Virus record (IMG/VR): IMGVR_UViG_2703718811_000004
Source of the DNA: a virus
Lineage: Duplodnaviria; Heunggongvirae; Uroviricota; Caudoviricetes
Length of the DNA: 7,144 bases
Reading direction: 5' to 3' (one strand)
Shown: positions 2,315 through 4,975 of the stretch, piece by piece
Layout of the letters: every line of letters begins with the position of its first letter
Position numbering within the stretch: the first letter of the stretch is position 1
Notes under the pieces: generated by a model
Databases searched by the model: none
Told to the model about the DNA's origin: nothing
Seen by the model: the letters and a program-made list of their open reading frames with translations, nothing else
Position numbers and translations under genes: made by a program

Positions 2315-3517
2315 TTACCAGCCGACAGACATACCCGCAGCAACACCTGAACCGTTCTGGGTATCCCATGAAGCATTCAAACGTACAGCAGAATTTTCAG
2401 TGGTGCGGAAGTGCATACCTGCTGCGATAGCCTGCTCATCACGGTAGTTACTTGCAGCCATACCAAAGGAGTACGTTTTACCCTCAACAACAGGAATGGC
2501 AGTCATCGCCATTGCTCCTGCAATACCTGCATCTGCACGTTTACGGTTTTTCTCCACCTCATCACGTAACTGACGGAATTGCTGATTAGTACTACGCTCC
2601 AGGGTACTGACCCGGTTATCTGTGTAGGTATTAGCAGACTTCAGTGTCTGTGCATCACCCTGAATACGGGCATTCTCTTCTGCAATACGATAGCGCTCTA
2701 ACTGACCATAGGTTGCGGCATCCGCAGCCTGAACACCATCACGAAGCCCACCAATTACACGATTCCCCACATTAACTTCATCGGGGCGAGTGGTCTGAGA
2801 GTTAGCCCCTACAGCAACACTGTTCGTATGGTTTGCAATGGCGTTGTAACCGACAGCAGTGGCGTTTTCTCCGCCTGCCGTTGCCCCGCCACCAACCTGA
2901 GTTTTACCGGTGCCCAGAGATGACAGACGGGCGTGAATATCTGTTACATCTGCAGCAGAAAGACCAGTGTCAATAGTGGCTCCATATTGCACAGCCTTCA
3001 TTTTAATTTCATAAATATATTCACTGATTTCAGGAATATGTCTTGAATATGTTTTTCCATCAGCGCCTACAGTCGAGACAACTCCTTCGCCATCTGCACT
3101 AAACAGAATTTGCTTGGTTTTTGTGTTTACAAAATAAGCTGTCTCATTCGCGTAATCATAATAAGAGACGATGTCTCCCCTTGGAGCAGCTAACTCGGTA
3201 TCTGTCAGGCCAGCCTTACCATAATCAATTAAGGTATATTTCAAATATTTACCGGAAACAGCGTCTATATTTAATGAGGTTGGTGTATTCCCGTCAAGAG
3301 AAATAACCTTACCATTCTCAAGCTTAATTAATGGATATCCATCTTGTTTATATACACCGATACCTTTCAAGAAATCCGCATGCTTTATTGCATTACTATT
3401 CAGAGTTTCAGGTGTAACGGAATAACCACTGGCATACGCCCCGACAGAAAATACCGACAGGCTTAATGCCGGCATTAAAGCCAACAATAGCTTGCTTGCC
3501 TTTTTCATGATTTTCAT
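2315..3517 (-). CDS. Trimeric autotransporter adhesin (YadA/Eib family), 400 aa: signal peptide, atypical N-terminal domain, short YadA-like head/neck repeats, coiled-coil stalk, C-terminal YadA membrane anchor.
   Basis: ORF-track protein. N-terminus MKIMKKASKLLLALMPALSLSVFSVGAYA is a Sec-type signal peptide. Head-repeat-like motifs ATAVGYNAIANHTNSVAVGANSQTT and neck-like DEVNVGNRVIGGLRDGVQAADAATYGQLE. Charged heptad-like stalk (RYRIAEENARIQGDAQTLK...RQLRDEVEKNRKRADAG). C-terminus AGIAGAMAMTAIP...YSFGMAASNYRDEQAIAAGMHFR...GVAAGMSVGW matches the YadA anchor pattern ending in GxSVGW. SD-like AAGGG about 8 nt upstream of ATG 3517. Family assignment is from memory of YadA/Eib sequences. Confidence 0.9.
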   Translation of the reverse strand: MKIMKKASKLLLALMPALSLSVFSVGAYASGYSVTPETLNSNAIKHADFLKGIGVYKQDGYPLIKLENGKVISLDGNTPTSLNIDAVSGKYLKYTLIDYGKAGLTDTELAAPRGDIVSYYDYANETAYFVNTKTKQILFSADGEGVVSTVGADGKTYSRHIPEISEYIYEIKMKAVQYGATIDTGLSAADVTDIHARLSSLGTGKTQVGGGATAGGENATAVGYNAIANHTNSVAVGANSQTTRPDEVNVGNRVIGGLRDGVQAADAATYGQLERYRIAEENARIQGDAQTLKSANTYTDNRVSTLERSTNQQFRQLRDEVEKNRKRADAGIAGAMAMTAIPVVEGKTYSFGMAASNYRDEQAIAAGMHFRTTENSAVRLNASWDTQNGSGVAAGMSVGW

Positions 3518-3780
3518 GATGTGTACCCTTATGTTAAATCATGTTATAAATATGTTGACATTCGGAACGCAAATGTCTTCAGGGATACTACTCACAATAA
3601 CAAGGCAAATAAAATATTAAAATCAATGAGTTAAGAAAAATTAACAATTAAAATCACAAGGATGCAATACGCATCAAAAACTTCCCCTAAATAACACCAG
3701 TATTACTCAGAAAAAACAAAACATTTTCTGTAGTTATTATTTACCATTGATAAATATTACCTCTCTCTGTCAGCCTGCAT
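3518..3780 (-). promoter_or_regulatory. AT-rich upstream regulatory region of the adhesin gene (putative promoter and 5'UTR; plausible target for nucleoid-protein silencing).
   Basis: Very AT-rich non-coding stretch (e.g. caaggcaaataaaatattaaaatcaatgagttaagaaaaattaacaattaaaatcacaag) directly upstream of the adhesin start. Candidate sigma70-like elements on the minus strand are TTGCGT then about 19 nt then TATAAC, ending about 25 nt before the ATG. No ORF of 60 aa or more on either strand. Promoter position not verified. Confidence 0.3.
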
Positions 3781-3837
3781 TGTATAAAACATACTCTGCA
3801 AACAGGTGCCATATCGGCTGAACCTCAGCAACCAGTT

Positions 3838-3859
3838 GACGGGGACTTTCGTCCCCGTC
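3838..3859 (-). other. Perfect stem-loop (9-bp GC-rich stem; loop GAAA on the minus-strand transcript) 10 nt downstream of the Hok-like stop codon.
   Basis: Plus strand gacggggac-tttc-gtccccgtc (3838-3859). On the minus-strand RNA the loop is GAAA, a GNRA-type tetraloop. No U-tract follows on the minus strand, so it is more likely a structural or processing element than a canonical terminator. Confidence 0.5.
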
Positions 3860-3868
3860 GCGGTTTTC

Positions 3869-4009
3869 CTACTGCTTACACTGTAAGAACGCCGCAAACT
3901 CCGCTCCCCACAAATTCAGCCGGAACTCACACAGTGAACCGTGCAACATCCAGATAGTGAAGATAACCGTCATACAAATTGTGACGGTGATAAGCGATTT
4001 TTGCGACAT
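3869..4009 (-). CDS. Hok/Gef-family type I toxin-like small membrane peptide, 46 aa.
   Basis: Manual translation from ATG (plus 4007-4009) to TAG (plus 3869-3871): MSQKSLITVTICMTVIFTIWMLHGSLCEFRLNLWGAEFAAFLQCKQ. It has a single N-terminal hydrophobic helix followed by the family-typical SLCE motif and a C-terminal E-x-AAF-x-x-C-K pattern (compare Hok/HokA-type peptides recalled from memory). Strong SD AAGGAG (plus 4019-4024) 9 nt upstream of the ATG. Below the ORF track's 60-aa threshold. Confidence 0.7.
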   Translation of the reverse strand: MSQKSLITVTICMTVIFTIWMLHGSLCEFRLNLWGAEFAAFLQCKQ

Positions 4010-4048
4010 AGCGCTTGACTCCTTTTACAGAGAGGCGCTAATCTTCTA

Positions 4049-4108
4049 CTTGCTTAAGGTATGATGGTCAGGGCCTCGGGTTAACGTTAAGTTGACTCGG
4101 GGCCTTTC
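4049..4108 (+). ncRNA. Candidate Sok-like antisense RNA (about 60 nt), complementary to the leader of the hok-like mRNA.
   Basis: Plus-strand promoter-like elements: -35 TTGACT (4015-4020, overlapping the hok SD on the opposite strand), 16-nt spacer, -10 GCTAAT (4037-4042), predicted start near 4049. Imperfect hairpin ggcctcggg (4072-4080) / ctcggggcc (4096-4104) with two G-U pairs, followed by TTT (4105-4107). Entirely sequence-based inference. Confidence 0.3.
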
Positions 4109-4163
4109 CACATCAGGCCTTCAGGTTCTCCCTCCAGCCATCAGCCGAAAGGCACCCACGCAT

Positions 4164-4192
4164 AATTTACGGTTTTTGCCCTGTACGGGCAA
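4164..4192 (-). promoter_or_regulatory. Candidate promoter of the hok-like transcript.
   Basis: Minus strand: -35 TTGCCC (plus 4187-4192), 17-nt spacer, -10 TAAATT (plus 4164-4169). The predicted start near 4156 coincides with the 5' fold-back element. Weak match to consensus. Confidence 0.3.
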
Positions 4193-4217
4193 TAAAAAAC
4201 CCGCCATCACAGCGGGT
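4191..4217 (-). terminator. Rho-independent terminator downstream of the lom-family gene.
   Basis: Minus-strand RNA: stem ACCCGC / GCGGGU (plus 4199-4204 paired with 4212-4217), 7-nt loop, then UUUUUAUU (complement of plus 4191-4198). Begins 24 nt after the lom stop codon (4241-4243). Confidence 0.6.
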
Positions 4218-4240
4218 AGTAAACGGTTACCGGATACAGG

Positions 4241-4975
4241 TCAGAATTTCAGGCCAATGCCAGCAGTAACGCCACTCGTGCGCCAGTCGCCAGAGCCGGA
4301 ACCTTCGTAAGCCACATCCAGTGTAACACTCTCATTCAGGTTAAACTGTGCACCTGCAGCCCACGCAAGGGAGGTTTTTTTCGTGCTGTTGCTTTCAGAA
4401 AATCCGCCACTACTGTTAATATTGTCCTTAATTTTCAGGTCAGCGCTAACTTTAGCAACGCCCATCCCTGCCATCGCATATAAACTCATGTACTGATTAA
4501 CCCGCCATGAAGGCCCCGCTAACAGACTCCAGTAATTCGCCCTGATATCCGTTCTGGCAGAAGCTGCCGGATTCTTAATCTTCCTGGTATGATCGGCTGA
4601 CTGCACATCAATAAATGTCTGTGAGTTAGTGAGAGAACGCGTCCATGTAAAAGAGGTGATAACGCCAAAATCATCCGTTATCTCGTAGCGATACCTGATA
4701 TTAATGCCCTGTGGATTTTTATCCTTGCCTTCATATCCACTGACCCGACCATCTGTATATTCGCCCAATGAAGAAAAGTAGTTTCTGTTGACGAAATGAC
4801 TGAAAGTCTCCCTGTTATGAGCAGTCGCATCCTTTACAAAATCCTTCAGTCCCGGAAACTGAAAGTGCGCATACCCCAGAGAAATTGTATGGTTTCCTTC
4901 TGCTGCATGTGCAGATAAATTTACACAGGCAATCCCGGAGATTGCACACACAACCAGTGTTGCTATACTCTTCAT
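4241..4975 (-). CDS. lom: Lom/Ail/PagC (OmpX) family outer-membrane beta-barrel protein, 244 aa.
   Basis: ORF-track protein with signal peptide MKSIATLVVCAISGIACVNLSAHA. C-terminus VAYEGSGSGDWRTSGVTAGIGLKF closely matches lambda Lom's C-terminal AYEGSGSGDWRTDGFIVGVGYKF (from memory), with a terminal aromatic residue. SD AGGA about 6 nt upstream of the ATG. Longer than lambda Lom (about 206 aa), so probably has extended loops. Confidence 0.9.
   Translation of the reverse strand: MKSIATLVVCAISGIACVNLSAHAAEGNHTISLGYAHFQFPGLKDFVKDATAHNRETFSHFVNRNYFSSLGEYTDGRVSGYEGKDKNPQGINIRYRYEITDDFGVITSFTWTRSLTNSQTFIDVQSADHTRKIKNPAASARTDIRANYWSLLAGPSWRVNQYMSLYAMAGMGVAKVSADLKIKDNINSSGGFSESNSTKKTSLAWAAGAQFNLNESVTLDVAYEGSGSGDWRTSGVTAGIGLKF

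Follow-up and report, generated by a model that had tools for sequence, protein, structure and literature searches.

We analysed a stretch of 7,144 nucleotides (nt) from a virus of the Caudoviricetes (IMG/VR record IMGVR_UViG_2703718811_000004), here called the window. Read from right to left, its minus strand carries a tail-tip fibre gene, two small genes, an Ail/Lom outer-membrane gene (lom), a spacer and a YadA-like adhesin gene, and it is the spacer between lom and the adhesin gene that concerns us. The minus strand of the spacer encodes a 46-residue peptide of the Hok toxin family within a predicted long, structured messenger RNA (mRNA), while its plus strand bears a promoter and a predicted short hairpin RNA complementary to the leader of that mRNA. 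The same DNA encodes the published 24B_1 RNA of phage Φ24B. Taken together, the spacer very probably holds a type I toxin–antitoxin module of the hok/sok family, present as an accessory gene beside lom in a short-tailed lambdoid phage of the Shiga-toxin (Stx) type.

A Hok-family toxin gene

An initial annotation of the window, made from its letters alone, had proposed a cryptic hok/sok-like module in this spacer. The minus-strand open reading frame (ORF) on which it was built is present at 3869–4009 with exactly the translation given, and so are the AAGGAG Shine–Dalgarno sequence (4024–4019), the SLCE motif (residues 25–28) and the AAF-x-x-CK tail, which reads AAFLQCKQ. A profile search had been named as the check on this proposal, and it gave a significant match to Pfam HOK_GEF (PF01848) at 33.2 bits against a gathering cutoff of 22 (E = 4e-8), with peptide residues 8–44 aligned to positions 6–42 of the 42 in the profile. 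The peptide is laid out in the Hok/Gef pattern, with an N-terminal hydrophobic helix that contains Cys/Thr and an LCE motif after the helix. In an alignment of the peptide with nine Hok peptides (two relatives as well as R1 Hok, HokA, HokB, HokC, HokE and PndA among them), the invariant residues were C12, T14 and L26, and C27 and E28 were found in nearly all sequences; a second cysteine lies near the C terminus, as in HokA. The best NCBIfam match is also HokA (NF007290), at 38.4 bits against an equivalog cutoff of 89, and because this score is so far under the cutoff we regard the peptide as a relative of HokA and not as its orthologue.

The toxin gene is a genuine member of the Hok family, and one that has already been catalogued. 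RefSeq names the protein 'Hok/Gef family protein' (WP_000078907.1; Escherichia coli strain ST866 and the BP-933W prophage of EDL933), and several phage records label the gene 'small toxic polypeptide' or 'MokW-like host killing'. A toxicity screen by Escalera-Maurer et al. included the identical peptide as its entry 72_1589 (plasmid LRP157, Table S2); 45 Hok homologs were screened, and the only non-toxic ones were 19_179, 60_1482 and 69_1540, none of them being 72_1589 (bioRxiv 10.1101/2025.08.07.668861). The description of the gene as cryptic and missed by ORF calling therefore holds for the many older GenBank phage records in which it is unannotated, but not for RefSeq or for the phage records that name it. 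Similarly, the spacer was said to have no ORF of 60 residues or more; none lies wholly inside it, but a plus-strand ORF of 72 residues (4092–4310) overlaps it.

Relatives of the unit

Using a two-sequence peptide alignment as the query, we collected 86 loci, which reduced to 63 distinct units; structural comparisons were made on 46 distinct full-length units, and mok reading frames (those overlapping the hok start) were compared in 61 relatives. The conserved unit spans 3805–4177 (~375 nt), in agreement with the 3805–4192 originally assigned to the module, and occurs as one block in 198 phage records and, with 78–100% identity, in 1750 of the 5426 complete E. coli genomes, a single genome having as many as nine copies. 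A close class of the unit adjoins lom in Stx phages, and a class of ~80% identity lies at the end of P2-like prophages, beside ogr. Homology among the relatives begins at the sense −10 box and stops right past the 3' fold-back element described below, which are the boundaries expected of a transcript. All 63 distinct relatives keep the hok frame, at 45–47 residues except in one copy that is truncated by the end of its contig.

Some viral contigs carry two diverged hok units in tandem, ~100 nt apart (L053, 2358–2731 and 2818–3140; L081, 2192–2560 and 2662–3032). One unit of each pair encodes an MSQKSL-type peptide and the other an MPQKTI-type peptide (cluster 82 of the preprint cited above), and their leader loop sequences differ. 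Near-identical units were also found on contigs of 0.9–4 kb labelled as Xanthomonas pisi, a Planococcaceae metagenome-assembled genome (MAG) and a Collinsella MAG (L002, L003 and L005); because the units match E. coli phage DNA and the contigs are so short, these look like contamination or mis-binning.

A predicted structured hok mRNA

We placed the 5' end of the hok mRNA where conservation starts, which is also position 1 of the Rfam model discussed below, and the 3' end where conservation ends, just past the end-pairing element. The resulting RNA of ~355 nt has a minimum free energy of −151.9 kcal/mol, compared to −112.5 ± 5.8 kcal/mol for shuffled sequences (z = −6.8), and none of 100 shuffles was as stable. 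Complementarity between its two ends had been pointed out in the initial annotation; the minimum-free-energy fold does pair 4157–4141 with 3804–3821, and the same end pairing forms in 45 of the 46 distinct relatives. In the consensus fold obtained without the 3' fold-back element, the 5' end instead pairs with 4111–4099, a nearly invariant segment. An alternative pairing of the 5' end of this kind is part of the R1 hok mRNA model.

The consensus structure of the 46 full-length units comprises 86 pairs. Standard pairs form in 98.6% of cells, versus 36–42% when the partners are slid by 1–3 columns, and 15 pairs have changed on both sides, versus 3.8 ± 1.2 in shuffles (0 of 500 reach 15); the slid control is the fairer of the two because the shuffle control ignores relatedness. 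Covariation is strongest in the 3' GNRA hairpin (helix 14), another feature foreseen from the sequence, in which four of nine pairs show changes on both sides, the closing pairs alternate among AC/GU, GA/UC and AG/CU, the loop is always GNRA (GAAA in the window) and pairing reaches 99.8%. The end-pairing helices 1 and 2 are 97.8–99.3% paired, but their columns vary little, so that support for them comes mostly from conservation and covariation is thin. A long-range helix (helices 7 and 8; 21 pairs, 98.5–99.6% paired) joins the hok start region, with the start codon, to the 3' part of the coding sequence. Within the full-length RNA the Shine–Dalgarno sequence is predicted to be masked, its GGAG core having a mean unpaired probability of 0.02 across the 46 relatives.

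A putative Sok-like antisense RNA and two candidate promoters

On the plus strand, an antisense promoter of the Sok type (TTGACT/TAATCT) overlaps the hok Shine–Dalgarno sequence, as initially annotated, and its boxes are conserved in the relatives. Fold and alignment together predict that it gives rise to a Sok-like RNA with a variable single-stranded 5' tail (~4052–4069), a 16-base-pair hairpin (4070–4106) and a short U tract. Among the relatives the tail sequence is specific to each class, and the hairpin and U tract are conserved. Tail and hairpin are fully complementary to the hok leader, in which the loop of the predicted Sok target hairpin (about 4043–4066) is the most variable stretch among the relatives. 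A variable recognition tail on a conserved scaffold would fit paralogous modules that coexist in one genome without cross-talk.

For the hok mRNA itself, the boxes of a candidate promoter hold their position even in relatives whose upstream flanks are otherwise unrelated. Sense and antisense promoters each match 8 of 12 consensus positions.

The spacer is the locus of the 24B_1 RNA

24B_1 has been described as a 20-nt 'microRNA-size' RNA encoded at 45711–45692 of Φ24B, between lom and vb_24B_43, and is reportedly cut from an 80-nt precursor transcribed from the promoter p24B_1 (−35 TTGACT, −10 CGCTAACCT) (PMC4426718). We used the Φ24B region of HM208303 to map the published coordinates and primers of 24B_1 onto the window. 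The 20-mer aligns to the plus strand without mismatch; within the Sok hairpin it takes in the loop, with the final 4 nt of the 5' arm on one side and 11 nt of the 3' arm on the other. The primers for the precursor map to 4053–4078 and 4132–4111 and so bound 4053–4132, p24B_1 is the antisense promoter, and the hok ORF corresponds to Φ24B 45784–45924, where HM208303 has no annotation. We therefore consider it highly probable that the 24B_1 locus is a hok/sok module and that the '24B_1 microRNA' is its antitoxin side. The 20-mer may be an RNase III product of the duplex between Sok and the hok leader.

The mapping also bears on the published genetics. Small-RNA sequencing of Φ24B yielded 2223 identical 20-nt plus-strand reads, corresponding to 4082–4101 of the window (PMC4426718), and plus-strand RNA from the Sok hairpin is abundant after prophage induction. 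Hfq binds the 80-nt precursor with a dissociation constant of 25 nM. The arms of the published 189-nt Δ24B_1 deletion bound 4021–4208 of the window, an interval that takes out the hok promoter, the leader, Sok and part of the Shine–Dalgarno sequence. Since the deletion begins inside the lom terminator (at 4208), the mutant may also alter termination of the lom transcript. The insert of the complementing plasmid, judged by the published primers, is Φ24B 45473–46037 and contains the whole hok/sok module; in a later paper on 24B_1, the same plasmid (pUC18_24B_1) is said to carry the 189-nt region.

The Δ24B_1 deletion makes induction faster and phage yield higher (PMC4426718), and with the plasmid-borne 24B_1 region adenosine triphosphate (ATP) is lower and survivors and lysogens are more numerous. 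We tentatively suggest, at somewhat less than even odds, that Hok accounts for these phenotypes through deletion or amplification of the whole hok/sok module. If so, this would explain the reduced lysogeny, faster induction and larger burst seen on deletion, together with the lower ATP and more numerous lysogens seen with a multicopy plasmid; leaky Hok would be expected to lower membrane potential and ATP.

Table 1 Features of the lom–adhesin spacer and its surroundings, in window coordinates
Feature	Position	Strand	Basis or detail
hok coding sequence, 46 residues (MSQKSLITVTICMTVIFTIWMLHGSLCEFRLNLWGAEFAAFLQCKQ)	3869..4009	−	ORF list, Pfam, RefSeq
hok Shine–Dalgarno sequence AAGGAG, nine nt before AUG	4019..4024	−	Sequence
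Masking hairpin, GGAG core (4022–4019) paired with CUCU (4032–4029)	4009–4040	−	Fold
Full-length hok mRNA, ~355 nt (inferred ends)	3803..4157	−	Conservation, fold, Rfam model
Candidate hok promoter: −35 TTGCCC (4192–4187), 17-nt spacer, −10 TAAATT (4169–4164)	4164..4192	−	Sequence, conserved position
5' end-pairing element (counterpart of R1 tac)	4141..4157	−	Pairs with 3' end or with 4111–4099
3' fold-back element (counterpart of R1 fbi)	3804..3821	−	Complementary to 5' end
Alternative partner of the 5' end, GUGGAAAGGCCCC	4099..4111	−	Consensus fold of alignment cut before the fold-back element
3' stem-loop GACGGGGAC-GAAA-GUCCCCGUC, GNRA loop	3838..3859	−	Helix 14 of consensus structure
Long-range helix, hok start region (4014–3992) with 3' coding part (3878–3906)	3878..4014	−	Consensus fold
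Predicted Sok target hairpin in leader	4032..4077	−	Helix 6 of consensus structure
Leader ORF, 21 codons, GUG 4111 to UAG 4048–4046, remnant of mok frame	4046..4111	−	Frame comparison
Sok-type antisense promoter: −35 TTGACT (4015–4020), 18-nt spacer, −10 TAATCT (4039–4044)	4015..4044	+	Conserved boxes
Sok-like antisense RNA (inferred ends)	4052..4113	+	Fold and alignment
24B_1 sequence (UAACGUUAAGUUGACUCGGG)	4082..4101	+	0 mismatches
GNRA hairpin read on plus strand, then CGGTTTTCCT	3837–3860	+	Terminator-like in scan
lom terminator, ACCCGCTGTGATGGCGGGT then TTTTTT	4199–4217	−	Ends a few nt before −35 box of hok promoter
Ail/Lom outer-membrane gene (lom)	4241–4975	−	ORF list and profile match
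YadA-like adhesin gene	2315–3517	−	Head repeat and membrane anchor (profile match)

Proposed mode of action and points against it

The steps that we propose are taken from the mechanism established for R1 hok/sok by Gerdes and co-workers. By analogy, the full-length hok mRNA would be stable and inert. Slow trimming of its 3' end back to the GNRA hairpin would strip off the fold-back element, upon which the 5' end would re-pair with 4111–4099 and the leader would expose the Sok target. The unstable antisense RNA would then bind the leader and RNase III would cut the duplex. Were antisense transcription to stop, Hok would be made and would insert into the inner membrane, with collapse of membrane potential and ATP. 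For the phage, the module is likely to modulate lysogeny versus lytic growth and to help retain the prophage.

Several observations weigh against this account, the first of which went unremarked in the initial annotation. A search of the window copy for an ORF overlapping the hok start, the counterpart of mok, found none. A conserved AUG/GUG at 4113/4111 opens a frame of 60–79 codons that overlaps hok in 19 of the 61 relatives compared, but this frame is interrupted in the window copy and in most relatives, and translation of Hok from the native transcript is consequently not assured. Single-sequence folds of 3'-shortened RNAs of the window copy give a competing local 5' hairpin and an ambiguous switch, and the Shine–Dalgarno core of this copy is paired in every predicted state. 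Other points concern transcription. A consensus promoter scan reported no promoter on either strand, so that both candidate promoters, whose boxes are present at conserved positions as first annotated, are argued from positional conservation and published data only. We found no published strand-specific detection of a full-length Sok-like transcript, although the 20-nt reads do give the strand, and we found no description of the reverse-transcription PCR of the '80-nt transcript' as strand-specific (PMC4426718). Lastly, the Rfam search that had been suggested as a check returned no match in the window at gathering thresholds. A permissive search did match RF01794 ('sok') to 3996–4157 on the minus strand over the full length of the model (E = 7.8e-6), but at 33.9 bits, under the gathering score of 59. 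Evidently, what RF01794 models is the leader of hok read in sense.

With mok broken, translation of Hok would either start at its own Shine–Dalgarno sequence, which is strong but masked, or receive help from ribosomes that complete the leader ORF of 21 codons. This ORF stops 36 nt upstream of the hok AUG, shortly before the hairpin masking the Shine–Dalgarno sequence. Leader translation may still help to open that hairpin, or Hok may be translated directly or hardly at all. Blocking the Sok target in the folding model, which might have closed the Shine–Dalgarno sequence by freeing the CCUC segment, had a small effect: the opening of the sequence fell by more than 0.1 in 15 of the 46 relatives and rose in none, and the window copy was unchanged.

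Alternative explanations

The hok/sok interpretation put forward initially is supported by the peptide profile, the RNA fold, the relatives and the published RNA. Its strongest competitor is that the spacer holds a decaying relic, in which mok is broken and Hok is no longer translated while the RNA pair persists, with the antisense RNA perhaps recruited to another function. The loss of an overlapping mok-type frame in all but 19 of the 61 relatives, the reduction to 21 codons here and the predicted pairing of the Shine–Dalgarno core in all states would all fit such decay, as would the lack of post-segregational killing by chromosomal hok loci tested earlier, which is mentioned in the introduction of a preprint (bioRxiv 10.1101/2025.08.07.668861). 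Against this, the hok frame has been kept in 63 of 63 relatives despite 20–25% nucleotide divergence, whereas the mok frame has not, and the strong Shine–Dalgarno sequence has been retained, as have all of the RNA elements, with compensatory changes. The family is moreover found in a third of E. coli genomes and in many functional Stx phages, and we judge a relic to be unlikely.

The published view of the locus is that a 20-nt microRNA-like RNA, 24B_1, is released from an 80-nt precursor and targets d_ant and sdhB in trans; the small opposite ORF would be incidental. This view can draw on the phenotypes reported for the deletion and for the plasmid-borne region, on the 2223 identical reads and on binding of the 20-mer to sdhB mRNA in gel shifts. 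That binding is weak, however, at less than 10% at 100 nM, and the deletion of 4021–4208 takes with it the hok promoter, the leader and some of the Shine–Dalgarno sequence, while the insert used for 'overproduction' spans, by its primers, the entire hok/sok unit. In cis, the RNA is a perfect complement of the leader of a hok gene with a significant Pfam match, and wherever the unit is found, P2-like prophages included, the promoter and hairpin of the RNA are conserved along with hok. The 24B_1 papers that we read make no mention of hok, sok or toxin–antitoxin systems, and no paper connecting 24B_1 to hok or to an antitoxin was found in the literature searched; the link may have been drawn elsewhere. 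On balance, an RNA acting purely in trans appears distinctly improbable.

A chance small ORF in an intergenic spacer, to which its shortness and the lack of any ORF of at least 60 residues wholly inside the spacer might point, is refuted by the profile match (E = 4e-8), the presence of the frame in all relatives and the conserved RNA structure around it, and its probability is negligible.

Comparison with known systems

As a hok/sok module, the spacer locus resembles R1 hok/sok (parB), the paradigm of type I toxin–antitoxin systems, in its general plan. Both have a Hok peptide with Cys/Thr in the helix followed by LCE, a long structured mRNA with paired 5' and 3' ends and a masked Shine–Dalgarno sequence, and an antisense RNA with a single-stranded 5' tail and terminal hairpin whose promoter lies over the hok ribosome-binding site. 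The two differ in that peptide identity is only 26% (46 residues here versus 52 in R1), that the window copy has no intact overlapping mok frame, that the conserved start of the ancestral mok-type frame precedes hok by ~100 nt, at the distal limit of the antisense-covered region, and that the R1 system is plasmid-borne whereas this one is phage-borne.

By peptide sequence the closer comparison is hokA/sokA of the E. coli chromosome, with 46% identity, a shared 'WM..(R/H)(D/G)SLCE' core and an 'AAFL.CK' tail, although the window peptide and HokA fall in different 60%-identity clusters of the preprint (72 versus 93). For HokB, a disulfide is reported in the introduction of the same preprint (bioRxiv 10.1101/2025.08.07.668861). 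In the window peptide, as in HokA, both cysteines are encoded directly, so that a HokB-type disulfide would need no RNA editing.

Stx phages are already known to carry one such system: hokW-sokW of Sakai prophage 5, a hok/sok locus in an Stx2 phage with an antisense RNA complementary to the 5' leader (Takada et al. 2021, PMC8621323), is the only phage-borne hok/sok tested as a toxin–antitoxin system that we found in the literature searched. We considered whether the window module is hokW-sokW and rejected this, since HokW has 51 residues, is HokC/D-like and occupies a different position in VT2-Sakai. There, hokW lies at 59818–59970 and is annotated together with mokW, and the window-type module lies, unannotated, at 46863–47164; such Stx phages thus carry two hok/sok loci. 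Deletion of hokW-sokW delayed lysis and halved phage yield (PMC8621323), whereas in Φ24B deletion of the equivalent of 4021–4208 was followed by faster induction and a raised yield (PMC4426718).

With 24B_1 (PMC4426718, PMC10732415) the likeness is one of identity, as the DNA, the precursor interval (4053–4132) and the promoter are the same. The difference lies in the reading: a trans-acting microRNA-like regulator in the published work, and an antitoxin acting in cis as an antisense RNA, or a fragment of one, here.

Significance

The system is of a known kind and the gene is largely known, as the family, the RefSeq name and the screened peptide all precede this work. As a toxin–antitoxin module it adds little, because the enrichment of hok in prophages is known. 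The value of the analysis is that it joins two mutually uncited literatures, those on hok/sok and on 24B_1. On the hok/sok reading, the Stx phages 933W, VT2-Sakai and Φ24B carry a second hok/sok locus beside lom, apart from hokW-sokW, and a decade of work on the '24B_1 microRNA' has been done on a hok/sok locus without the toxin gene having been recognised. The same reading would explain more simply, and in a way open to test, how the region tips Stx phages towards lysogeny or lytic growth, with a bearing on toxin release. Natural variation in the family could also be used to ask whether mok coupling is needed, by comparing copies in which the mok frame is intact with those in which it is broken.

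Genomic setting

The DNA of the window matches the accessory region found in Stx-converting short-tailed lambdoid phages, among them 933W, VT2-Sakai, Φ24B and Shigella phage 75/02, and the spacer is 100% identical to that of E. coli strain ST866. On the plus strand, the terminator-like reading of the GNRA hairpin might halt transcription arriving from the adhesin side before it enters the hok coding sequence.

The adhesin gene sits where 933W and Φ24B carry vb_24B_43, a hypothetical gene of 402 nt, and the slot immediately downstream of hok is therefore one where accessory genes are exchanged. A stretch of ~280 nt preceding the adhesin gene (3520–3800) is AT-rich, at ~37–40% G+C. Abutting the adhesin stop codon, a minus-strand ORF stays open all the way from 2314 to the left edge of the window (>771 codons), and 26–2152 matches the start of the giant 8.4-kb LPD5-domain gene of Stx phages. 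Both ST866 and the closest phage, phiSTEC1589-Stx1c, have five small genes (~3.3 kb) between the adhesin gene and the LPD5-domain gene; their absence from the window suggests a deletion variant or a defective prophage.

The annotation of the phiSTEC1589-Stx1c record (PQ600364.1, our locus L090) looks unreliable in this region, where the adhesin is labelled 'terminase large subunit', Lom 'virulence determinant Bor' and the small genes 'portal protein', and where the hok gene appears as 'hypothetical protein; ORF B85'.

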